A stretch of DNA of 64,000 nucleotides from an uncultured Methanosarcinales archaeon (GCA_964354285.1 CAYGYR010000003.1:30902-94901), one strand, 5' to 3'; positions 10,612 to 59,037 are shown, counted from the stretch's first letter. A program made the numbers and translations. Notes: generated from the sequence alone by a model not told the origin.

Positions 10612-10696
10612 CCCTGCTTAGCTCAATGGCAGAGTGGCCGGCTGTAAAAAATCTTGCAGCTCCCGGCAGGTCTCAGTTCGAATCTGAGAGCAGGGA
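10612..10696 (+). tRNA. tRNA-Tyr (GTA) with an approximately 15 nt intron at the canonical 37/38 position
   Basis: Acceptor ccctgct/agcaggg. D arm gctc...gagt. Anticodon stem gccgg/ccggc with loop ct-GTA-a, interrupted by aaaatcttgcagctc. T arm ctcag-TTCGAAT-ctgag. Discriminator A. Confidence 0.8.
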
Positions 10697-10732
10697 CTCG
10701 GGCTTGCATCCCTAACTGCAGGAGGAAATAAA

Positions 10733-40586: not shown

Positions 40587-43193
40587 TTATACTGCCTGAA
40601 CTTTAACGTCTGTCAAGCTTGTGCCAGAGATCTCTGCTTCAGCAGCTGCTACAGATTTGATCTGTCCAGTTGCTACAGCTCTTGCAGCTTGTCTTGTGTT
40701 CATTGCAGTTCTACCTGCAACTAGCAGTGCAACGTTTCCGTTTGCATGCGTGAACAACTTGACAATAGCTTTGTTCTCAGGTATAGACTCCCAGCAAGGT
40801 TCTGGGTTGCCCATCAATTGAGCAGCTAATGGGTTAGCGCATGGGCCGCCGACAACAATTGCGTTGAATTGCGTTATGTTTGCAATCTCGCTTGCCAGCT
40901 TTGCAGCGCCAAGTTGTATTGGCTGCAGTTGTTCTGAGACTCCGCCTGTGCTTATCTCCTGCACGTTGACTTGCCCGCCAGTTATGAAGACTCTTGCTCC
41001 TCTCTGGCTGAGTGGATACTCAATGGTCAAGTCCTCTGCTTCATTGCCAGACTGTGGATCGTACATTTCAAGGAACAATCCATATCCTGACATTGCCTGC
41101 TCGAGGTCTTCATTCTCTTCCAGGTCATATAGGCCGAAGAAGATGGTGTTGGCGTTTCCTGCCATGACCTGTGCCTTTGGTATTCCAATCTCATTGCCTG
41201 TTCTTGGCTCTACAGTCACGTTGATAACTTCGTCACCAACTGCTTCATCAAACTCTTTTGCAAGAGTTACGATGTTGAACGTTGCGTTTGTGTCAGCCAT
41301 CGAACACGAGGTATTCAATGCACACGTAGCTATTGGAAATGCTCTGTCTGTGCCGTTAATGCTTAGACATTCGCTGACATCAAATATGATGATGCCTTCT
41401 CCCTGCACTGCGATTACTGAGTCATTGCAGTCAGTGATTGTTCCATCGCCGTTCAAGTCAATGTTCAGGTTGCTTCCTGAGCGCACAACTCTGTAGGTTA
41501 TTCCGCCAACAATAAGGTTTGCTTGGCTGGTAGCTACATCGTATGTGACTTCTCTTGTTCCTGTTCCCAGGTCAGTGAATTTTAACTGCCTGTTTGCAGT
41601 GTCAATGCTGTCGTATCTTAGCACGTGCGTGAAGCATGTGTTGTCGTCAGTAGCTCCTGCACCGCCGTGGTGTAGTGGCGAGCTGCCTGATGATACTGTT
41701 ATTGCACAGTCGCTCAAGATGAAGTAGTCATCATCGCCGATAACGAATCCTGTTGACTCTGTAAACCAGAGATCATCGTCCTCGTCACCAAATGTGAACA
41801 CTCCATTCTCATTTGTTATCAATGGCGCATCGTACATTATACCTTCCTGGTTTGTGAATTCCAGGTTGTACTTGTCGTCTCCTGCTGCATCAAACCTGAT
41901 TATGGTCACTCCTGTGTCCATCAGTCCTTCGTATCTGACGTCCCAGAATGGCGTTAACATTCCTTCTGGCTCGTCAAGCTGCTCTCTCAAGCCTGTTCCT
42001 GGAGGTATGTATGTTGATCCAAGCACAGAGTCTGCATACAGCCTGTATTTGATGCTTGTTATCTCGAAATCAGTGCCTGTGCTTTGCAGCTGGCCCCTGA
42101 TTTGTATGTCTGAGTCTTCAATGGATTCTTCATTGACTTTTGTCCCAGAGTTAACAAATGCTGTGTCTGTCACGTTTGTGTCCTGGAAGGTCAATTTGTA
42201 TGCTCCAATGTAGAACTGTACAATGGATTTCTGGATGTCTTTTCCTGTTGCAAGGATATCCCTGATACCAATCTGGGTTCCGTCTGCAAGGACATCTGTC
42301 TCTCCATCTGTCAATTCATCTGTTATCTCTCCATTGATTCTGAATTTTACAGAACCTTCTCCGCCCTGCGAAGTCTCTGAGATGACAACAACCTCTACTT
42401 CGTATTCTTTGCCGTCAATGACATAGGTCTCTTTGTCGTTTTCTCCTAGGATTCCGCCAGTTGCTCCGCCCATCAAGCTGATCTTTAGGGTTTCGTTGTT
42501 GAGCCAGTAGTCTGTATCAACAATGACAAATGGCTGGCCTAGTATGAAGATATCTTCATCTTCGAGGTCAGATAGGTCTCTTGTGTTTGTGATTCCAACA
42601 ATCTCTGATTGAAGTCCTTCTTCAAACTCAAGCTCCCATTCAAAGAGCTGGTCTCCATCTTGCCAGTAAAGATAATGTCCTACTTTGTCTCTCTCGTCTT
42701 GGTAGAATACAACTGAACCACTCTGCCTTCCGCCAGTGTGTGTTATCTGTGTCTTGTTAAACCTTATATATTGGTTGTACTCTGTTGAGCCCTGATCAGT
42801 AACGATCTGGCCTCCTTTCAACATGTCGAGATCAACTTCTGTAAAGGTTTCTCTGACATTTCCAATTGTCTCGTTTATTTCCAACAGATCTGAAGTGCTT
42901 CCTACCTCAGCAGCATCTCCTGTAAGAACAACTCCTGAAACTGCTGGTGCAGTCACCGTTGTCTTGACAACAGCTGCCTGTTGCATAGCACTGTTTATGT
43001 CGATAGCTCCTATAACGTCTGACCCTGCTGCATTGTCGCCTACTGCAATTGCATAGTTCGCGGCTGGTACGCCGTTAACTACGAATGGTGCAGGCCAATC
43101 TGCTAGGGTGTACGCAGAAGCACCGAAAATTGTTGCTCCGACCATGGTTAAACCTACTCCCAGAGCCGCAATTCTTTTTATTGTTTGCTTCAT
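40587..43193 (-). CDS. large secreted cell-surface protein (S-layer/adhesin-like)
   Basis: 868 aa. Signal peptide MKQTIKRIAALGVGLTMVGATIFGASA. Rich in Thr/Gly/Asp/Asn. Flanked by inverted copies of the repeat family. Confidence 0.8.
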   Translation of the reverse strand: MKQTIKRIAALGVGLTMVGATIFGASAYTLADWPAPFVVNGVPAANYAIAVGDNAAGSDVIGAIDINSAMQQAAVVKTTVTAPAVSGVVLTGDAAEVGSTSDLLEINETIGNVRETFTEVDLDMLKGGQIVTDQGSTEYNQYIRFNKTQITHTGGRQSGSVVFYQDERDKVGHYLYWQDGDQLFEWELEFEEGLQSEIVGITNTRDLSDLEDEDIFILGQPFVIVDTDYWLNNETLKISLMGGATGGILGENDKETYVIDGKEYEVEVVVISETSQGGEGSVKFRINGEITDELTDGETDVLADGTQIGIRDILATGKDIQKSIVQFYIGAYKLTFQDTNVTDTAFVNSGTKVNEESIEDSDIQIRGQLQSTGTDFEITSIKYRLYADSVLGSTYIPPGTGLREQLDEPEGMLTPFWDVRYEGLMDTGVTIIRFDAAGDDKYNLEFTNQEGIMYDAPLITNENGVFTFGDEDDDLWFTESTGFVIGDDDYFILSDCAITVSSGSSPLHHGGAGATDDNTCFTHVLRYDSIDTANRQLKFTDLGTGTREVTYDVATSQANLIVGGITYRVVRSGSNLNIDLNGDGTITDCNDSVIAVQGEGIIIFDVSECLSINGTDRAFPIATCALNTSCSMADTNATFNIVTLAKEFDEAVGDEVINVTVEPRTGNEIGIPKAQVMAGNANTIFFGLYDLEENEDLEQAMSGYGLFLEMYDPQSGNEAEDLTIEYPLSQRGARVFITGGQVNVQEISTGGVSEQLQPIQLGAAKLASEIANITQFNAIVVGGPCANPLAAQLMGNPEPCWESIPENKAIVKLFTHANGNVALLVAGRTAMNTRQAARAVATGQIKSVAAAEAEISGTSLTDVKVQAV

Positions 43194-45080: not shown

Positions 45081-46532
45081 TTAGAATCGAGATTTTTTTG
45101 GTTTCTTCTCATAACTAAGCACTGCATAAATGACCAGCCCTGCGCCGATTGCAGCCGCAAGTATCACAAGAAGCCATGCAAAAAATCCAGCGCCTGTTTT
45201 CTTTTTTTGCGGCGCAGTCTTTGCCTGTTGCTGCTCAAATGGAAGCGGCTTGTGCTCTGCTTTTGCTTCAGGTTTTACAGCAGTGGTTGTGTTTGCAGCA
45301 GATGTATTTTTACTCAGTGTTTCATTTTTTTGTGCCGCAGGCTTGATAATGACAACTGCGTTCTTGCCTGCGGTTTCATTTTTTATGACAGCCGTATTTA
45401 TTGCTTCCTGCCCTGTTGCATTTTTCTCAACCAGCATTCCTGGGAATTCTGTCGCGTATCTTATCACAGTGTCTTTGCTATCCCCGTCCTCGTTAAGGTC
45501 TCCTGTAAAGAACTCGTGCGTTGAAAATGCAAGTTTATTGCCGGAGATTACAGGATCTTTGCCATAAATCCCTGTCTGTATAAAAACACTGTTTCCCAGG
45601 TTATAAAATGAAATCTTGTTTTCCTGCGCAAAGGCAATTGTTTTTCCAAATATGCTTGTGCCAGAGCCATCAACTTTTGTATTTGTTAGCTTCTGGCTGG
45701 GAATATCATAATACATCACTATTTCGTCATCAATATCAAGGTCTCCATTCAAATCATCTGTAAATTGTTCTGGGACTGTGAATGCTGCGATATTTTCTTT
45801 GCTGATGGATGGCTTTTGCCCAAATGCGATTATGTTGCTTGTTTGGTTTGTTTCAAAGGAATAATACCTTAATATAAGGTCATCTGTGTCCTTGTCTTTG
45901 TTCACATCCTCATTAAGCTCTTTTTCAGAGGCCTCAAAAATTATGTATTTGCTGTTTGCTGCAGGATTTGTGCCTGCTTGTTTTGTGTTGATTATTTCCT
46001 TTGCTGCGATGTTATAGTATCTTATGATGGTATCTGCCTTGTCCCCATCATTGTTATAGTCAATGCCTGTCTCTGCTTCAAGGGTTGAGAAAACAATGGC
46101 AGTATCAGTCATCACAGGTGTTCTGCCATCTGCGCTTGCATCAATTATTTTTTTGTCAGGCAGGCTATAATATACTATCACTGTGTCGTTTTTGTCGCCG
46201 TCTGCATTAAGGTCTTTGTTCTGGCTTGCCTCAGGGCTTTCAAATGCGATGTTTGTCTCGAGAATAGCTGGGTTTTTTCCTGCAATTCCTGTGCTTGACA
46301 GCTCTTTTGTTTCTGTATTGTAATACCTGATTATAGTGTCTAGTTTATCGCTGTCGTTGTTTAGGTCGGCATTTATTTCAGATTCGTCTGTCTCAAAAAC
46401 AATAATGCTGCCGCTGAAATCAGGATTCCTTCCAAGCGCTTTTGTGTCAAATGTTTGCAGGGCAGATGCAGCCGCAGATAAAATGAGCAATGAAATCAAT
46501 AGCAGTAATGCGCTGTAGGCAATTTTTTTCAT
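45081..46532 (-). CDS. Secreted beta-propeller-like repeat protein with FG-GAP/Ca-binding-like DxNxDGDxxDT(I/V)I repeats and a C-terminal TM anchor
   Basis: Signal peptide, then 6-7 repeats of about 47 aa (DLNADGDKNDTVIVYY, DYNNDGDKADTIIRYYN and others). A Thr/Lys-rich linker follows. The C-terminus is GAGFFAWLLVILAAAIGAGLVIYAVLSYEKKPKK. Confidence 0.8.
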   Translation of the reverse strand: MKKIAYSALLLLISLLILSAAASALQTFDTKALGRNPDFSGSIIVFETDESEINADLNNDSDKLDTIIRYYNTETKELSSTGIAGKNPAILETNIAFESPEASQNKDLNADGDKNDTVIVYYSLPDKKIIDASADGRTPVMTDTAIVFSTLEAETGIDYNNDGDKADTIIRYYNIAAKEIINTKQAGTNPAANSKYIIFEASEKELNEDVNKDKDTDDLILRYYSFETNQTSNIIAFGQKPSISKENIAAFTVPEQFTDDLNGDLDIDDEIVMYYDIPSQKLTNTKVDGSGTSIFGKTIAFAQENKISFYNLGNSVFIQTGIYGKDPVISGNKLAFSTHEFFTGDLNEDGDSKDTVIRYATEFPGMLVEKNATGQEAINTAVIKNETAGKNAVVIIKPAAQKNETLSKNTSAANTTTAVKPEAKAEHKPLPFEQQQAKTAPQKKKTGAGFFAWLLVILAAAIGAGLVIYAVLSYEKKPKKSRF

Positions 46533-53285: not shown

Positions 53286-53444
53286 ATGAGTTTAACCAGT
53301 TTGCTAATACTTGTACTGCTTGGCGCCATTGCATTGGGAATTATTCTTGGCTTTGCCAAAAAAATCGCGAGAACTGTTCTCTGCGTTGTTGTAATTGCGC
53401 TGGTTATATTAGGCGGATATCAGCTATGGAAAGTATTTTTGTAA
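53286..53444 (+). CDS. small two-TM membrane protein
   Basis: 53 aa, hydrophobic. Confidence 0.35.
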   Translation: MSLTSLLILVLLGAIALGIILGFAKKIARTVLCVVVIALVILGGYQLWKVFL

Positions 53445-53541: not shown

Positions 53542-53952
53542 ATGAGCATGCTTGATTTTTTGAGGTTCTGGAAGAAAAAAGAAGAGATGCCTGAGTTTCC
53601 AGAGGCAGGAATGCCGGAAACAGGAATGCATGAAATGCCTCCTGGAGAGTTCCCAGGTGTTTCAGCAGCTCCTGGTTTTGAGCCGACAAGCGCAATGGCT
53701 CCTGAGCAGCCCCCTGTTTTTGGGAGAGAGCCTGCAGAGACTCCAAGGGCTTTTGCACAGGCAGAGCCAACAGCACTCAGTGCGCCATCTTTCGGCAGGC
53801 CATCTGCACCAAGTTCTGATAAGGAATTCCAGCTCATCAATGCAAAGCTTGACTCAATCAAGGCATCAATAGACGGCCTTCACCAGCGCCTTGACAAGAT
53901 GGAGATTGAGAAGCAGCATAAGGAAGAAAAAGACATTTATGCCTGGCGATGA
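53542..53952 (+). CDS. Pro-rich hypothetical protein with a C-terminal coiled coil
   Basis: 136 aa. Confidence 0.45.
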   Translation: MSMLDFLRFWKKKEEMPEFPEAGMPETGMHEMPPGEFPGVSAAPGFEPTSAMAPEQPPVFGREPAETPRAFAQAEPTALSAPSFGRPSAPSSDKEFQLINAKLDSIKASIDGLHQRLDKMEIEKQHKEEKDIYAWR

Positions 53953-54401
53953 AGAATAAAAACTTTATTTTCTTTGGTATTGCATTCCTGGTTATTTTTC
54001 TTGACCAGCTAACCAAGTATCTGGTAAAATCAAATCTCTCATTAGGCCAGTCTATTCTTGTTATTAAAAATTTTTTCAGCATAACCTTAATCAAGAATTT
54101 CGGGATTGGCTTTGGGATGCTCAACACCCCTGCAGCAAGATGGATTCTTGTCTGCATAACAATAGTGATAATTGGAATCATACTATATTACTACAAACAG
54201 ATTCCAGAAAAATATCTTGTGCTAATCGCGGCAGCGCTTGTTTTAGGTGGAGCAATAGGCAATCTTATCGACAGGATTCTGCTTGGCTTTGTCATTGACT
54301 TCCTTGATTTCACAGTCTGGCCTGCATTCAACATAGCAGATTCTGCAGTTACAATTGGCGTCATTGGCCTGATAATTTATTTCATTACAGAAAAAAAGTA
54401 G
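53949..54401 (+). CDS. lspA: lipoprotein signal peptidase (signal peptidase II, LspA)
   Basis: 4 TM helices, with the GNLIDR and FNIAD catalytic motifs. Confidence 0.8.
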   Translation: MKNKNFIFFGIAFLVIFLDQLTKYLVKSNLSLGQSILVIKNFFSITLIKNFGIGFGMLNTPAARWILVCITIVIIGIILYYYKQIPEKYLVLIAAALVLGGAIGNLIDRILLGFVIDFLDFTVWPAFNIADSAVTIGVIGLIIYFITEKK

Positions 54402-54571: not shown

Positions 54572-55075
54572 ATGGCTGAAGAATCAAAAGGAATTGCCCT
54601 TGCAATACTCGGCATAGTAGCGGTTATAGCAATTATCGGACTTGTTCTGATGTTCTCGAAAATGAAAGCTGCTACTGGCGACGTGTATGGCGGTGGATTG
54701 AAATGGGGAGAAGGCGGATGGCAAAAAGAAGGATTATCAACAAGATTCCTTCGTGCGCCTGAACTGCAGATACCAGGGTCTCCTTACCCAATTGAGACAG
54801 CAAGAGGCGGCGGAAAGCTTGGCGGAGAAGCTAGAACCACAGAGCCTAGGAAAAATGCTCCAGGACTGGCTTTCTATGAGAGCCCGATTGGAATAAGAGA
54901 TTGCCGCATGGCAGTAGCAACAGGCTGGCTAGAAGCAGGATATACCGCGCAGACTGCAAAAAATAGCAGGATACTTTCTGAATACCCTAGCTGCTATGGC
55001 GTGGACAAAGCCTGGCCAGAAGGATTTATATCAGAGCAAATCCCAGGATTCTGCTGCAAAGAGCCTACGTATTAA
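54572..55075 (+). CDS. pilin-like Cys-rich small protein, paralog 1
   Basis: Begins MAEESKG|IALAILGIVAVIAIIGLVLMF, a short charged N-terminus with K-G followed by a hydrophobic helix of about 21 aa. C-terminal C...C...CC. RBS AGAGGTGA. Confidence 0.8.
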   Translation: MAEESKGIALAILGIVAVIAIIGLVLMFSKMKAATGDVYGGGLKWGEGGWQKEGLSTRFLRAPELQIPGSPYPIETARGGGKLGGEARTTEPRKNAPGLAFYESPIGIRDCRMAVATGWLEAGYTAQTAKNSRILSEYPSCYGVDKAWPEGFISEQIPGFCCKEPTY

Positions 55076-55171
55076 ATATAATTTTTTTTATTAATTTTTT
55101 TCTAATTTTTCTAAAACAAAAATCTAACTAAAGCATCTTATGCGAGGAAAGTATACAAAACAAGCAAAAAG

Positions 55172-55179
55172 TTTATATA
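55172..55179 (+). promoter_or_regulatory. TATA box (TTTATATA) with an A-rich BRE upstream of paralog 2
   Basis: AAAAAGTTTATATACAAAAACAGTTTTA. The same module is duplicated at 56019. Confidence 0.55.
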
Positions 55180-55238
55180 CAAAAACAGTTTTATTCTAAA
55201 AAAGCATAATAACAACAAAAAATTTGAGGTGATTATTG

Positions 55239-55784
55239 ATGGATGAACATAACAAGGGTATTGCTATTGCAATTATAGGCATAGTTGCTGTTACTGCAAT
55301 CGTAGGACTGGTTTTTCTGTTTTCTATGTCAAAAACCGGCGCATCTTTTATGGGCGGGCCAAAAATCTATGGTGGAGCAACAAAAGGAAACCTGTTCCCT
55401 TACACGAGGTTCATGGACCAGGATCAGCCTGTTGTCGAAACGCCTGGATGGGAAACTACTGTAACGGCTCCTGCTGAGAATGTATACGGCGGAGCAGCGA
55501 GAGCAGACCTGTATGTTGGCAACACAATGCCTACAGTCGAGAAACAGGTTTCAAGCGGCTTCAGGTATGGTAGAGAGCTAGGCAAGATTCCAACAGCACT
55601 TACATCATGCATGGCACTTGACTTCAAGGATGAAGCAGGCAATCGCGTCTTTGCACCAGTAGGAGTTTCAAGAAATATGCTGCAGGATTATGAGTTTGTC
55701 AAAGGGCAGTGCTTCAGGTATACTGCAGATGGAACCCCAGTCAACACAATCCTCTCAAAGGATGCGTGCTGCACAGTAAGGTAA
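55239..55784 (+). CDS. pilin-like Cys-rich small protein, paralog 2
   Basis: MDEHNKG|IAIAIIGIVAVTAIVGLVFLF; C-terminal C..C..CC (ACCTVR). RBS GAGGTGA. Confidence 0.8.
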   Translation: MDEHNKGIAIAIIGIVAVTAIVGLVFLFSMSKTGASFMGGPKIYGGATKGNLFPYTRFMDQDQPVVETPGWETTVTAPAENVYGGAARADLYVGNTMPTVEKQVSSGFRYGRELGKIPTALTSCMALDFKDEAGNRVFAPVGVSRNMLQDYEFVKGQCFRYTADGTPVNTILSKDACCTVR

Positions 55785-55941
55785 ATTTTTTTAATTTATT
55801 TTTTCTCTTTTTTTCTGTATTCTGTAATATCCGTTTCATAAGAAAAAAACAAAAGTTTTAACTCGAATAGTTTGTCTTTTTCAATTTAGAAGCAAAAAAT
55901 ATATAACAATAAAGTATGTCTGCTTCTAAATAACGCAGATT

Positions 55942-56008
55942 CAGCGAGTCTGCGGGATCAAAGAATTGCGCACTAAACTAGGGTTTTAGACCCGCGCAAT
56001 TCTTTCAT
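55942..56008. ncRNA. repeat / candidate structured RNA element, copy 2
   Basis: CAGCGAGTCTGCGGGAT + stem aaagaattgcgc ... GGGTTTTAGACCC ... gcgcaattcttt. See copy 1 at 7694. Confidence 0.4.
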
Positions 56009-56018
56009 AAGCAAAAAG

Positions 56019-56026
56019 TTTATATA
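56019..56026 (+). promoter_or_regulatory. TATA box upstream of paralog 3
   Basis: Identical 26-mer AAAAAGTTTATATACAAAAACAGTTTTA. Confidence 0.55.
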
Positions 56027-56084
56027 CAAAAACAGTTTTAGTTATAAAAACATAATCAAGTAATAAAAAATAGAGGTGATTTTC

Positions 56085-56618
56085 ATGGAAGAGAACAAGC
56101 TTGCTGTGGCAATTCTTGGAGTAGTTGTTATTGTTGCAATAATATGCTTAGTGTTTATGTTTTCTGTTGGAAAGACAGGCGAAGCAATTTATAACCCAAT
56201 TTATGGCAGCTATGTCGTGCCAAAGATTTATACGAACTATAATCAAAATCCGTGGCCGTACTCAAGAGTGCTGGACCCAACAACAACGTATGAGAGGCCA
56301 GCTACAACAATGTCAGGTGAGGAGCCTGCAGGAACAACGTATGGTGGAGCATCAGAGTTCTTCATGACAAACACTCCAAAAGGGGTGCAGAGCACATTCG
56401 TGACCTATAAAAGGTCTGCTGAAAAAAGTATTCCAACAGCACAGACAACTGGCATAGCAATCAGATTCCCTGGCGGCATAAAAGCAGATTCTTGCTATGG
56501 AATGCAGCAGTATTATACAAAATCAGCTGACTCAACAAGAAACTGCTTCACAGAAGATGCATATGGCAGGGCAATCAACGCGTATATGCCACAGTTCTAT
56601 GGCTGCTGCGACAGCTAA
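56085..56618 (+). CDS. pilin-like Cys-rich small protein, paralog 3
   Basis: MEENKLAVAILGVVVIVAIICLVFMF; C-terminal C..C..CC (GCCDS). Confidence 0.8.
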   Translation: MEENKLAVAILGVVVIVAIICLVFMFSVGKTGEAIYNPIYGSYVVPKIYTNYNQNPWPYSRVLDPTTTYERPATTMSGEEPAGTTYGGASEFFMTNTPKGVQSTFVTYKRSAEKSIPTAQTTGIAIRFPGGIKADSCYGMQQYYTKSADSTRNCFTEDAYGRAINAYMPQFYGCCDS

Positions 56619-56667
56619 ATTTTTTATTTATTTTTTTCTCTTATTATTTAATAACACCTTTCTGATG

Positions 56668-56710
56668 TTTGGTTGCTTCTCGAGCACGAATGAGGAGCGC
56701 CTTTTGATTC
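56668..56710 (+). repeat. repeat-family partial copy C
   Basis: GGTTGCTTCTCGAGCACGAATGAGGAGCGCCTTTTGATTCTAACC matches the 3' half of copies A and B. Confidence 0.7.
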
Positions 56711-56789
56711 TAACCATTAAAAACGCAAAGCGTTTGGGGTCTCAAAGAGTTTTGCTCTTTGAAACTTTCCCAAAGTTAGAAACAAAAGA

Positions 56790-56797
56790 TTTATATA
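56790..56797 (+). promoter_or_regulatory. TATA box upstream of paralog 4
   Basis: AAAAGATTTATATACACGAAC. Confidence 0.5.
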
Positions 56798-56857
56798 CAC
56801 GAACGGTTACTATTCTCTAAAAATCAAACTAAAATAAAAAATCGAGGTGAATAGATA

Positions 56858-57274
56858 ATGGAACAGTCAAAAGCAATCCCATTAGTAATTCTAGGCATTA
56901 TTGCGTTGATAGCAATAATTGGTATTGTGTTAATGTTCAAGATGTCTGCAACAGGCGGAGCTGTCAGCGGAATAACAACTTGGGGAAGGGCAATCGCAAA
57001 GAGCGGCGGAAGAGCATACAACCCTTACGCACCGACCTGGGGAAAAGCAATCGCAGGCGTAGAGGCATTCAAAGTTGGCACCATCCTAGGACAGGCTTGC
57101 TTGGTTGTTGACAAGAGCCAGGCAGAGAAAGGAATCATTCCTATTGAAGCATTTAATGACCTGACAACAGGAAAATGCTATCCTTACTTCACTGGATTTG
57201 AGCAAAATGCAGACAGTGTCTGCTGCTTGGAATCATATATACAGTCAATGGTTCCGAGATACAATGTTATTTGA
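56858..57274 (+). CDS. pilin-like Cys-rich small protein, paralog 4
   Basis: MEQSKAIPLVILGIIALIAIIGIVLMF; C-terminal C..C..CC. Confidence 0.8.
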   Translation: MEQSKAIPLVILGIIALIAIIGIVLMFKMSATGGAVSGITTWGRAIAKSGGRAYNPYAPTWGKAIAGVEAFKVGTILGQACLVVDKSQAEKGIIPIEAFNDLTTGKCYPYFTGFEQNADSVCCLESYIQSMVPRYNVI

Positions 57275-57284
57275 GGTGAAAAAA

Positions 57285-57782
57285 ATGGAAGAAAAAACTA
57301 TTCTATTCGTAATGTTAGGAGCTGTTGTTCTCGTTGCAGTAATTGGATTTATCAGTGCAATGAATGCAGAAAACACAGGGATGGGAATATATGTACAGCC
57401 TGGCCAGTTCCAAAGGGGACTTGCAATCAGGTCAATTGGCTCTGGCTGGCAGGATTCAGTCAGCATGATTGACCAAGGCGGATTTGTAACAGCAGGCGAG
57501 AGCCAAATACCTACTGGATCAAAAAGAATGACCCCAAAAATTCCTGGAGCATACAGCTCATGCATGCCTAGAGATGAGAGCGGAAACTTCATATACGATG
57601 CAAAAGGAGTCATACTAGTTGGATGGGAAGTGCCTAATTACCTAGCAGACCAATCAAACGTATTAAGATGCGCAGTAAATTATTTCAAAGATGTAAGCTA
57701 TCAATACCCAGACAGCAAATGCTGCTGGAATTCGTATGAATCCAGACTTTCAGGAAGCACAGGAGCAGCATATAGAAGTTAG
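57285..57782 (+). CDS. pilin-like Cys-rich small protein, paralog 5
   Basis: The internal Met MEEKTILFVMLGAVVLVAVIG, preceded by GAGGTGA, is the more plausible start. C-terminal C..C..CC. Confidence 0.75.
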   Translation: MEEKTILFVMLGAVVLVAVIGFISAMNAENTGMGIYVQPGQFQRGLAIRSIGSGWQDSVSMIDQGGFVTAGESQIPTGSKRMTPKIPGAYSSCMPRDESGNFIYDAKGVILVGWEVPNYLADQSNVLRCAVNYFKDVSYQYPDSKCCWNSYESRLSGSTGAAYRS

Positions 57783-57840
57783 AAAAATTTAAATACTAAA
57801 AATAAAAACAATCAATAAGACCAAACGAGGTGAATTACAT

Positions 57841-58245
57841 ATGGAAGAAAAGAAAGGACTTGCTTTAGTGATTCTCGGCATAGTTGCAGTTCTTGCAGTC
57901 GTTGGATTAGTACTGCTGTTTAAGTCAGCATTAACAGGAGGATACAGCGTATCTTCAACACTGTATGGATCACCAAAGACGTACATTGGAACAGGACAGG
58001 CACAGAGGCTTGAAGGCAGCTGGGTTACAGGAGTTCCTGAATACAATGACCCGCAAAGCCAGGGGCCTATGGAAGTGCAGTATGCAGGATATTGGTGGCC
58101 TAGCCCGACATATCCAGCACAAGTAAGCCCATCTGTACAAAGACAAACATCTTGGCAGACAGCTCCTTGCTATCCAGGACAGCCAGCTGAAAGGCCTGAG
58201 TGGGTAGAGTGGTGGGCTGGAGACACGCCTTGCCGCATGGGTTAA
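57841..58245 (+). CDS. pilin-like Cys-rich small protein, paralog 6
   Basis: MEEKKG|LALVILGIVAVLAVVGLVLLF; two Cys (C..C) in a Trp/Pro-rich tail. Confidence 0.75.
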   Translation: MEEKKGLALVILGIVAVLAVVGLVLLFKSALTGGYSVSSTLYGSPKTYIGTGQAQRLEGSWVTGVPEYNDPQSQGPMEVQYAGYWWPSPTYPAQVSPSVQRQTSWQTAPCYPGQPAERPEWVEWWAGDTPCRMG

Positions 58246-58291
58246 AAATTTTTAATTTATTTTTTTTAACTAATTTTTTTAGGTGATGCTA

Positions 58292-58657
58292 ATGGAAAAT
58301 AAGGATATTTCAATGGTAATTCTAGGAGTCGTTTCAATTATTGCAGTTGTTGGGCTTGTTTTGCTGTTCAAGACAGCATTTAGCGGCGGAGCAGTCCACG
58401 GAGCTGGAATTTATGCGCAGGTCAAAGGAGACTTGTATGGAGGCGGATTTCCTGTTTATAGCAACAATTGCGAAACTCTTTATGGCAAAGGCTATATTTT
58501 CACACAGGGGCCTAGACATTTTGACTGGACATGCAAGCCAGGATTGAGGACAGAGACTTGGAAATGGAGAGCGCCTGGGCTAGATCCTTGGTTCAATAAT
58601 CCCCAGTATTATGAGACAGAGGGGTATTGCTGCCCAATTGGTGCAGGATTTCAGTAA
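58292..58657 (+). CDS. pilin-like Cys-rich small protein, paralog 7
   Basis: MENKDISMVILGVVSIIAVVGLVLLF; C-terminal C..C..CC. The stop overlaps the next start (TAATG). Confidence 0.75.
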   Translation: MENKDISMVILGVVSIIAVVGLVLLFKTAFSGGAVHGAGIYAQVKGDLYGGGFPVYSNNCETLYGKGYIFTQGPRHFDWTCKPGLRTETWKWRAPGLDPWFNNPQYYETEGYCCPIGAGFQ

Positions 58658-59037
58658 TGGCAGGCAATAAAGAAACATTACTTTTAGCTGTGGTTGCATT
58701 ATTTGCAGTCATAGGCGTTATTCTTATGCTCAAGTTCTCTTCTACTGGCCTTGGCATGTATGGCGGAAGCCTTTATCCTGGCAGGGCAGTTGAAAAAATT
58801 GCAGAAGAAAGGTTCTTTAAAGGCGGAAACCCTGAGGGTGTTGTTGTTGAGACACAAACCCGCGGCGGCTACAGGCAATATATGGGCATGTATGAGTGCC
58901 CTGAGAATTACAGGCCAACCAGCAAGTCTCAATACCTAGGTAAGTTTGAGTACTATAAAGATATCTGCGTGCCAACATTATATCCAGACGCGTATCCTGG
59001 CATTGTTTGCTGCCCATCAACATTTTCTAGAAGGTAA
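58657..59037 (+). CDS. pilin-like Cys-rich small protein, paralog 8
   Basis: MAGNKETLLLAVVALFAVIGVILML; C-terminal C..C..CC. Confidence 0.75.
   Translation: MAGNKETLLLAVVALFAVIGVILMLKFSSTGLGMYGGSLYPGRAVEKIAEERFFKGGNPEGVVVETQTRGGYRQYMGMYECPENYRPTSKSQYLGKFEYYKDICVPTLYPDAYPGIVCCPSTFSRR

Follow-up and report, generated by a model that had tools for sequence, protein, structure and literature searches.

The question raised by this locus is what a run of eight small, similar genes encodes, and whether their hydrophobic N-termini mark them as type IV pilins, as secreted proteins with a cleaved signal, or as something else. In the window, by which we mean the whole 64-kb stretch of DNA that was analysed, positions 54572–59037 hold eight consecutive plus-strand ORFs with a common 33-residue N-terminal module. 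An HMM of this shared N-terminus scored all eight genes at 60–71 bits (E 1e-18 to 1e-21), while no ORF outside the array, of the 718 found in six frames of the window, scored better than E 0.18, which argues that the array is not a product of chance. The ORFs and this HMM thus confirm the tandem array of eight same-strand paralogues proposed in the initial annotation. Also real is the architecture described there, in which a short charged tail leads into a helix of ~21 residues and a Gly/Tyr/Pro-rich part precedes a Cys motif at the C-terminus.

The true starts (Table 1) were chosen by the SD and the conserved MEE.K N-terminus, and the lengths given earlier as 121–194 aa are corrected to 121–181 aa, paralogue 5 being the shortened gene. 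A GAGGTGA SD had been claimed for every gene; it is present upstream of paralogues 1–6, whereas paralogue 7 has AGGTGA and paralogue 8 a weak match. The duplicated TATA modules were found as described, in the form of a 73-nt promoter/5′UTR module with a TATA box, copies of which precede paralogues 2, 3 and 4. T-rich terminator-like tracts follow four of the genes, and the start codon of paralogue 8 shares bases with the stop codon of paralogue 7 (TAATG). The genes would thus be transcribed as units 1, 2, 3, 4–5, 6 and 7–8.

Table 1. Genes and expression signals of the array and its upstream neighbours, in window coordinates
Feature	Position	Strand	Description
Conserved 136-aa protein	53542–53952	+	Upstream of lspA; cluster 4 in 14 loci
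lspA (signal peptidase II)	53949–54401	+	150 aa; catalytic motifs GNLIDR and FNIADS intact
Paralogue 1	54572–55075	+	167 aa; MAEESKG + helix + TG; Gly-rich spacer; C111..C141..C161C162
T-rich terminator-like tract	55080–55112	+	After paralogue 1
Promoter/5′UTR module	55162–55234	+	AAAAGTTTATATA ... GAGGTGA; upstream of paralogue 2
Paralogue 2	55239–55784	+	181 aa; C124..C158..C177C178
T-rich terminator-like tract	55784–55825		After paralogue 2
Promoter/5′UTR module copy	56009–56081		Upstream of paralogue 3; 78% identical to the paralogue 2 module
Paralogue 3	56085–56618	+	177 aa; K-L, without Gly before the helix; C137..C154..C174C175
T-rich terminator-like tract	56616–56648		After paralogue 3
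Promoter/5′UTR module copy	56780–56852		Upstream of paralogue 4; 62% identical to the paralogue 2 module
Paralogue 4	56858–57274	+	138 aa; K-A before the helix; C81..C107..C122C123
Paralogue 5	57285–57782	+	165 aa; start MEEKT, not the 194-aa ORF; C93..C129..C146C147
Paralogue 6	57841–58245	+	134 aa; K-G; Trp/Pro-rich; only two Cys (C110, C131)
T-rich terminator-like tract	58245–58277		After paralogue 6
Paralogue 7	58292–58657	+	121 aa; K-D before the helix; C60..C81..C113C114
Paralogue 8	58657–59037	+	126 aa; K-E before the helix; C81..C104..C118C119

A search of 1.84 billion proteins returned 380 family representatives at E<=1e-3, the representatives being clusters at 50% identity; nearly all are 60–230 aa long and align from residue 1. 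Across these ~380 clusters the module has the consensus M-A-E-E-x-K-G-IALAILGIVAVIAVVGLVLLF-xxxx-T-G, with K/R before the helix in 97%, G13 in 95%, A16 in 92%, A19 in 98%, G22 in 98%, F27 in 91%, T/S in 89% and the final G in 98%. Small residues occupy every third helix position (G13, A16, A19, G22), and the uncharged run, which starts at about residue 6–7, has a median length of 23 residues. Within the array the module is on average 49% identical, whereas the parts that follow it show 31.7% identity against 30.1% for shuffled sequence; the post-module part of paralogue 3 resembles that of paralogue 2 weakly (E 4e-7). The constancy of the module, despite the lost similarity of the mature parts, points to a sequence-specific role of the helix, unlike that of a signal peptide that is cleaved and discarded.

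The relatives come almost all from Woesearchaeota MAGs, and beyond this group and its close DPANN relatives the family has so far hardly been found. A DPANN organism, as suggested in the initial annotation, is supported both by this origin and by the archaeal character of the RNA polymerase, TFB and S8e genes. The recent serial duplication also suggested there does not hold: the post-module parts lie at the shuffled level, the module DNA is only 60–72% identical between paralogues, and the orthologues are collinear elsewhere. One related locus (L001) carries 1:1 orthologues in the same gene order, and in other genomes paralogues 1–3 and 4–8 form two separate arrays with the order kept. Orthologues of paralogue 1 are the first gene after lspA in other genomes, and paralogue 2 is 37–73% identical to its own orthologues. 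Since each paralogue has its own collinear orthologue in other genomes, these are old paralogues. The proposed comparison of copy number across genomes showed that relatives always occur in arrays, of 2–8 members, and that the sampled loci of one MAG together hold 9–16. The eight genes are old, non-redundant members of a family of small, probable cell-envelope proteins.

In the C-terminal part, the C..C..CC pattern is present in seven of the eight genes and not in six as first counted; paralogue 6 has C..C alone, as stated, and its orthologues keep this two-Cys state. Four conserved Cys occur in 136 of 254 family members. Paralogue 3 has one additional Cys within the helix, and paralogue 4 contains an internal repeat (TWGRAIAK/TWGKAIAG). 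The composition of this part is G 12%, Y 7%, P 7%, C 3.3% and K 3.5–4.5%, against K 8.8% in the other proteins of the window. That it could not be placed in a known family was upheld in Pfam, NCBIfam, PDB sequences and PDB folds. Profile searches of the eight genes in Pfam and NCBIfam gave no match at threshold, nor did a Pfam search of ten of the largest relatives; the precomputed Pfam domains of 120 database relatives include none for these proteins, and every database relative is annotated as “hypothetical”. A profile search against the PDB returned only PsbJ (E 0.056), with no archaellin or pilin, and a PDB fold search with the paralogue 8 model gave no match.

The AlphaFold check proposed earlier was made for paralogues 2 and 8, as single-chain AF2 models of modest quality (mean pLDDT 56 and 69). 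It supports a confident helix that runs through the TG cap and a small C-terminal domain, while the spacer is of low confidence. In paralogue 2 the helix spans residues 3–32 and residues 35–123 are of low confidence, followed by the small domain; in paralogue 8 the helix spans residues 4–29, and residues ~81–120 have a mean pLDDT of 82–84. A low-confidence spacer of ~40–90 residues thus separates the helix from a small head in these models, and the Gly/Tyr/Pro-rich spacer is predicted to be disordered.

We infer that the C-terminal part is extracellular, from its composition, from the four conserved Cys, and from other proteins with the same N-terminal design. In related loci, a cadherin/Ig-like adhesin and a subtilase carry the same long H-region followed by I-T-G, and their C-terminal domains are of extracellular types. 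Taken together, the family probably represents cell-surface subunits that associate via the shared helix. Our leading reading, which we hold tentatively, is that these old, small cell-envelope proteins retain the helix as anchor and common interface and act as co-assembling subunits with surface heads. Each protein consists of three parts: a nearly invariant module in which a short acidic tail and one Lys/Arg precede a 21-residue helix capped by Thr-Gly; a Gly/Tyr/Pro-rich spacer, predicted to be disordered; and a head of ~50–60 residues that in most members is held by four Cys (C..C..CC), presumably in two disulfides. The module would insert the protein N-in/C-out, and the helix would stay in the mature protein as a membrane anchor. 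Different family members may also pack side by side through this helix, as an interface common to them all, so that a mixture of heads, stabilised by disulfides and borne on flexible stalks, would be presented at the cell surface. These heads would contact surfaces or partner cells, in a putative adhesive role.

Some observations fit this helix-anchor model less well. The charge balance across the helix does not favour N-in and counts against the model: the N-tail is net acidic (K+R 1.2, D+E 1.7), and the 15 residues past the helix hold K+R 1.8 and D+E 0.9. The segment from the helix to TG, which is short, small and polar with an invariant final Gly, would suit the c-region of a cleaved signal peptide just as well. 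In addition, the conserved position of lspA next to the arrays may point to a processing step outside the model.

The pilin-like N-terminus reported in the initial annotation holds in part. Bona fide type IV pilin-like subunits would be cut after K-G by a PibD-type class III peptidase and assembled by a PilB/PilC-type machine encoded elsewhere, into a fibre of one major and several minor pilins. Under the class III rule, position −2 must be charged and position −1 must be G/A/S (PMC4371748). In the family, K/R stands at −2 in 97% and the H-domain follows the putative cleavage site directly; G/A/S is at −1 in 77% and in four of the eight window genes (paralogues 1, 2, 4 and 6). The constant helix, variable heads and tandem genes have the look of pilin or pseudopilin operons. 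A FlaFind-like pattern, applied as had been proposed, selected paralogues 1, 2 and 6 and nothing else among the real genes of the 64-kb window. The −1 rule is broken consistently in the orthologous groups of paralogues 5, 7 and 8, which have K-T/K-Q, K-D and K-E, respectively (for paralogue 5, K-T in the window gene and six orthologues and K-Q in one), and paralogue 3 has K-L. The acidic N-tail also speaks against pilins, as does the PDB profile search, and no curated pilin or class III model in Pfam or NCBIfam matched at threshold, Flp1_like reaching E 0.14 with one paralogue only. In the AF2 models, which are of modest quality, the helix leads into a predicted disordered spacer and not into a head packed on it. 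The search for machinery recommended earlier covered the 64-kb window and ~106 loci (up to 10 kb of flank), and neither a secretion ATPase nor a platform protein nor an A24 peptidase was found there; such machinery may be distant from pilin genes, as for Haloferax PilA1-6 (PMC4371748). Genuine type IV pilins are unlikely and not demonstrable here, and the best reading is that the family follows a pilin-like logic without proven membership.

A second account is that these are ordinary secreted proteins whose Sec signal peptide is removed by signal peptidase I after T-G, which would release soluble disulfide-rich proteins of ~90–145 aa that might act as effectors, antimicrobials or matrix proteins. 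The tripartite layout agrees with it, with a charged tail, an H-region and a short small/polar stretch that ends in Gly in 98%. The subtilase and adhesin of related loci, whose H-region is followed by [IV]-[TS]-G, fit the −3/−1 rule, and the C-terminal composition is of extracellular type. However, Lys/Arg is found at −3 in ~45%, which is disfavoured for signal peptidase I, and the n-region is net acidic. The 21-residue H-region is conserved residue by residue between ancient paralogues and over phylum-level distance, as generic signal peptides are not. Ordinary Sec signals in the same genomes also look different, with MKK... AxA (the S-layer protein at 40587–43193 and the ORF at 45081–46532). 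On balance, simple secretion looks improbable.

The third account starts from the neighbouring gene. The reported position of the array directly downstream of lspA was verified: this is a bona fide gene (PF01252, 3e-39; TIGR00077, 9e-36), and in 23 of 41 genome loci, as in 21 metagenome loci, lspA is the same-strand gene directly upstream of an array. The gap is 38–174 bp in 20 of the 23 genome loci, although LspA identity across them drops to 31–41%. Upstream of lspA, the 136-aa protein carries an amphipathic MSMLDFLRFWKKK at its N-terminus, is Pro-rich in the middle and has a coiled coil at its C-terminus; it gave no family match. The module could be a new archaeal sorting or assembly signal, in which either LspA cuts at T-G without a lipidated Cys or a coat or fibre forms without TFF machinery; we regard this as quite unlikely. 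If true, the former would represent a new substrate class of signal peptidase II. That the co-encoded LspA processes this family, with the module as sorting signal and x-[TS]-G as a cysteine-less lipobox, is very doubtful. The lipobox rule (PROSITE PS51257) does allow [TS] at −2 and G at −1, but these proteins have E, K, Q, A, G or N at +1 in place of the Cys that defines a lipobox and receives the lipid, and no Cys lies within ~20 residues of the helix end. Basic residues occur at −3/−4, and LspA is canonical at every motif when aligned to P. aeruginosa LspA. Related genomes also encode normal lipobox proteins, so that LspA has ordinary substrates. Moreover, the lspA-array region is part of a broader synteny block with the housekeeping genes enolase, prs and iPGM, and some arrays occur away from lspA.

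A reversed topology (N-out/C-in), with a cytoplasmic Cys-rich part that could bind metal, is scarcely credible: the charges on the two sides of the helix do lean slightly towards a C-flank in the cytoplasm, but the composition is unlike that of the window's cytoplasmic proteins, C..C..CC is to our knowledge not a usual metal-binding spacing, and the TG motif is common to proteins with extracellular-type C-terminal domains.

Several known systems resemble the helix-anchored subunits that we favour. Conotoxin-type superfamilies likewise join a conserved targeting region at the N-terminus to Cys-patterned C-terminal parts that cannot be aligned, and their genes are clustered. In conotoxins this pattern reflects recent duplication with diversifying selection, whereas the array paralogues are old, each has conserved orthologues, and their conserved region is of membrane-spanning length. 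Bacterial lipoproteins, as LspA substrates, compare in the peptidase gene next door and in [TS]-G at −2/−1, which resembles the last two lipobox positions; they differ in the defining +1 Cys, which the array family lacks, and in the charged residues of its c-region.

The bacterial minor-pilin and pseudopilin operons (GspG-K, FimU-PilVWXE and ComGC-GG) have a similar layout: tandem same-strand genes for 4–8 different subunits in conserved order, with a common N-terminal helix and divergent heads. C-terminal disulfides are also common in pilins. Unlike in the array, position −1 is always G in these systems and +5 is usually E, and the ATPase, platform protein and peptidase are encoded with or near the subunits; their heads pack on the helix, in contrast to what the AF2 models predict. 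Haloferax volcanii PilA1–PilA6 are likewise small paralogues with an almost identical N-terminal hydrophobic helix and different C-terminal parts, and the helix itself is the functional assembly element (PMC4371748). Compared with them, the array family lacks G/A/S at −1 in three of eight orthologous groups, has an acidic N-tail, matches no pilin model in sequence and shows no machinery at the loci examined; it has instead an invariant T-G after the helix, a long spacer predicted to be disordered and a C..C..CC head. By analogy, a helix that serves as shared interface would work on the principle known from the conserved H-domain in type IV pilins.

Eight consecutive forward-strand open reading frames between 54572 and 59037 form a genuine tandem array, as the initial annotation had described, and the gene directly upstream is confirmed as a bona fide lspA, encoding signal peptidase II. 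Gene starts were picked by the Shine-Dalgarno site and the common MEE.K N-terminus, and these starts give proteins of 121–181 aa instead of the 121–194 aa first claimed. The GAGGTGA site attributed to every gene is present upstream of paralogues 1–6 (numbered 5' to 3'), but paralogue 7 has AGGTGA; paralogue 7 stops and paralogue 8 starts within an overlapping TAATG. An HMM of the first 42 residues scores 60–71 bits with each of the eight proteins, and none of the window's other ORFs scores better than E 0.18 (718 six-frame ORFs).

Positions of the array and of other features in the window
Feature	Position	Strand	Remarks
Paralogue 1	54572-55075	+	
Paralogue 2	55239-55784	+	
Paralogue 3	56085-56618	+	
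Paralogue 4	56858-57274	+	
Paralogue 5	57285-57782	+	
Paralogue 6	57841-58245	+	
Paralogue 7	58292-58657	+	
Paralogue 8	58657-59037	+	
lspA	53949-54401		directly upstream of array
Conserved 136-aa protein	53542-53952		directly upstream of lspA
Small ORF	53286-53444		reduced window form of a 2-TM membrane protein
73-nt module	55162-55234		upstream of paralogue 2
73-nt module copy	56009-56081		upstream of paralogue 3; 78% identity
73-nt module copy	56780-56852		upstream of paralogue 4; 62% identity
Hairpin element	55925-56012		spacer between paralogues 2 and 3
tRNA	10612-10697		86 nt
ORF, 1035 aa	31844-34951		no Pfam match
ORF, 903 aa	47511-50222		no Pfam match
ORF, 483 aa	45081-46532		no Pfam match
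ORF, 510 aa	15434-16966		no Pfam match

The archaeal origin of the window is borne out by its genes for split RpoB, RpoA'/A'', TFB, ribosomal protein S8e and an S-layer protein. Approaching the array from its 5' side, one meets genes for a PD-(D/E)XK protein and an endonuclease III-like protein, then the small membrane ORF, a 136-aa protein and lspA; DUF2284, iPGM, PRPP synthetase and enolase follow the array downstream. In the 136-aa protein, an amphipathic MSMLDFLRFWKKK in the N-terminal part is followed by a Pro-rich middle and, C-terminally, by a coiled coil; the protein is kept immediately 5' of lspA in at least 14 loci. It is often preceded by a 2-TM membrane protein, reduced in the window to the small ORF, and neither has a family match. 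The 483-aa protein carries a typical Sec signal peptide and has relatives in five other loci. Elsewhere in the window, the gene that ARAGORN assigns to tRNA-Phe (anticodon AAA), and that Rfam supports as a tRNA at 55 bits, is more likely an intron-containing tRNA-Tyr(GUA): inspection by eye gives the anticodon loop as CU-GUA-A, with ~15 nt inserted between it and the 3' half of the anticodon stem.

No known family had been recognized for the array proteins, and this held in Pfam and NCBIfam, where nothing reached threshold. The same was true of Pfam for ten of the largest relatives, and no precomputed Pfam domain is recorded on 120 relatives from two word-index searches, all 120 of which are unnamed or "hypothetical". 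A PDB sequence profile search of the family returned PsbJ alone (E 0.056), which is regarded as chance similarity of single-span helices, and a literature search for a cysteine-rich DPANN family gave nothing relevant. Searched against 1.84 billion protein clusters, the eight-protein profile retrieved 380 representatives at E<=1e-3; nearly all have 60–230 aa and align from residue 1 onwards. Scanning one genome per species yielded 39 loci, nearly all in Candidatus Woesearchaeota MAGs (one is from Aenigmatarchaeota and two from Nanoarchaeia); a metagenome scan added 67 loci with the same organisation, and a search of IMG/VR viral contigs gave no relative. The genes always occur in same-strand arrays of 2–8, with 9–16 members per single MAG when summed over the sampled loci. 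This is a real family that is widespread in a single lineage, carries no annotation and has no description in the literature that could be searched.

What unites the family is an N-terminal module with the logo M-A-E-E-x-K-G-I-A-L-A-I-L-G-I-V-A-V-I-A-V-V-G-L-V-L-L-F-x-x-x-x-T-G. K/R precedes the helix in 97% of members and is followed by Gly in 70%; G13 (95%), A16 (92%), A19 (98%), G22 (98%) and F27 (91%) are conserved along it, as are the T/S (89%) before the final Gly and that Gly itself (98%). Almost residue for residue, the module is the same in paralogues whose mature parts no longer resemble one another beyond noise, and it stays so at phylum-level distance. Such identity is not maintained in a generic discarded signal peptide, and the ordinary Sec signal peptides of the same genomes, those of the S-layer protein and the 483-aa protein, are of the MKK..AxA type, unlike this module. 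These contrasts suggest a sequence-specific role for the helix, which would be read by a dedicated partner or by other family members. They also make it unlikely that these are soluble secreted proteins cut by signal peptidase I after T-G.

Beyond the module, global alignment of the eight proteins gives 31.7% identity, compared with 30.1% when sequences are shuffled, and BLAST relates only two pairs, paralogues 2/3 (4e-7) and 2/5 (7e-5). The C..C..CC pattern near the C-terminus, first counted in six of the eight, occurs in seven, and paralogue 6 has two Cys only, as noted. The C..C..CC pattern is found in 136/254 family members, with median spacings of 24 and 15 residues and a tail of ~8 residues. 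The post-module parts contain Gly 12%, Tyr 7%, Pro 7% and Cys 3.3%, and their Lys content is 3.5–4.5% compared with 8.8% in the window's other proteins. For paralogue 2, AlphaFold2 gives a confident helix (3–32), residues 35–123 of low confidence and a small C-terminal domain; for paralogue 8, a helix at 4–29 and a mean pLDDT of 82–84 over residues ~81–120. The predictions thus put the head on a stalk instead of packing it against the helix. In both models T-G falls at the predicted helix end, where a helix cap at the membrane surface would account for it.

We tentatively propose, as the likeliest of the readings considered, that these are small surface proteins. The conserved helix would stay in the protein as the anchor and would also mediate association among family members, and two-disulfide heads would be displayed on flexible spacers.

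The pilin-like character ascribed to the N-termini is borne out in part. Class III signal peptides have a charged residue at -2 and G/A/S at -1, followed by the H-domain (PMC4371748). Of the two residues before the helix, the one at -2 is charged in 97% of members, whereas -1 is G/A/S in 77% and, in the array, only in paralogues 1, 2, 4 and 6. For paralogues 5, 7 and 8 the pair is K-T/K-Q, K-D and K-E, respectively, consistently within each orthologous group, which suggests that the common feature of the family is independent of cleavage before the helix. That these are true type IV pilins with their machinery elsewhere is unlikely: the N-tail is net acidic and the post-helix flank net basic, no pilin model or solved pilin is matched (Pfam, NCBIfam, PDB profile), the predicted head is not packed against the helix, and none of the ~106 loci has a type IV filament gene nearby. 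Genes for a pilus ATPase, a platform protein and a prepilin peptidase are also absent from the 64-kb window. A neighbourhood link to pilus machinery was rejected, since the recurrent neighbours are unrelated (glycogen synthase, histidine phosphatase, DnaG primase, HerA, type I restriction enzyme R subunit and PlsX, and, by eye, a PhoU-like protein and a GTPase). Walker A matches resembling secretion ATPases were limited to the motif GVNGSGKTT, which we take to be that of FtsY-type SRP GTPases. Pilin membership is not demonstrated, and part of the evidence contradicts it.

The neighbouring LspA is a further candidate for acting on the module. In 23 of 41 genome loci and 21 metagenome loci, an array directly follows lspA on the same strand. 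The gap is 38–174 bp in 20 of the 23, despite LspA identities down to 31–41% between loci, an operon-like conservation. Cleavage of the family at T-G by this enzyme is nevertheless very unlikely and kept as a minority hypothesis: the wider region is a synteny block including housekeeping genes, other arrays are located away from lspA, and LspA looks canonical, with both catalytic motifs intact in the alignment of the window protein to P. aeruginosa LspA. Related loci also encode ordinary lipobox proteins (L008 8061-9062, L012 8054-9070, L028 3520-4704), and the family has no Cys at +1, the residue after T-G. On this last ground the array proteins were rejected as lipoproteins.

Two larger proteins of related loci have a long hydrophobic N-terminal stretch followed by I-T-G: a ~1000-aa cadherin/Ig-like/DUF11 adhesin (L005 11138-14131) and a subtilase (L034 5767-7890). 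They suggest that a hydrophobic region plus [TS]-G is a wider N-terminal signal class in these archaea, distinct from MKK..AxA, and support an N-in/C-out orientation that would place the Cys-rich part on the outside; a reversed topology is extremely improbable.

The duplicated TATA modules reported earlier are present as a 73-nt promoter/5'UTR module (AAAAGTTTATATACAAAAACAGTTTTA ... GAGGTGA) with a TATA box, repeated before paralogues 2, 3 and 4. Paralogues 1 and 6 are preceded by a separate motif, GAAACATTTAAATA. T-rich tracts are found after paralogues 1, 2, 3 and 6, and together with the repeated modules they suggest [1], [2], [3], [4-5], [6] and [7-8] as the likely transcription units. Folding of the spacer between paralogues 2 and 3 gives two strong hairpins whose 15-nt arms are 93% complementary (MFE -33.5 kcal/mol, z = -6.0 relative to shuffled sequence). 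At only ~120 nt, the equivalent spacer of L001, a locus with orthologues of all eight genes, probably does not conserve the element.

The recent serial duplication first envisaged is not upheld. In L001 the order of the eight is kept, with 57–84% identity outside the module; in more distant genomes the orthologues of paralogues 1–3 adjoin lspA and those of 4–8 form a second array beside DUF2284-prs-eno. The window array is thus two conserved sub-arrays end to end, and its paralogues are old and non-redundant. Module DNA is only 60–72% identical between paralogues, and peculiarities of the module track orthology, not genome; recent duplication and gene conversion among paralogues are therefore both rejected. 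Nine loci belong to MAGs labelled "uncultured Methanosarcinales archaeon" (L007, L008, L010, L012, L015, L018, L027, L030, L034). Six of them (L007, L008, L010, L012, L030, L034) show the Woesearchaeota-type synteny hyp136-lspA-array, often with glycogen synthase and enolase next, and L018 is of a PhoU-like/DHH type also found in Woesearchaeota MAGs; the taxonomic label of these records is probably wrong.

Woesearchaeota genomes conserve a canonical bacterial-type LspA whose catalytic dyad is intact (L001–L034; e.g. L002 9461-9913), and a literature search on LspA or signal peptidase II in Woesearchaeota/DPANN gave nothing relevant. According to a 2026 preprint, homologues of bacterial lipoprotein enzymes have not been reported in archaea (10.64898/2026.03.08.710431); genomes with the LspA-array pairing would therefore be a natural test bed for archaeal lipoprotein and surface-protein processing.

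DPANN archaea rely on cell contact, and their small surface proteins are almost unstudied. The present family, conserved across Woesearchaeota and annotated by no source, makes up ~1% of the genes in roughly 1-Mb genomes (8–16 copies in the genomes sampled). Its residue-level helix conservation offers a handle for antibodies, tagging, metaproteomic searches and cryo-ET, and raises the question of whether the helix is read by a peptidase, an assembly machine or fellow family members. The helix would work like the conserved H-domain of archaeal adhesion pilins, and we tentatively read the family as helix-anchored, pilin-like surface subunits.
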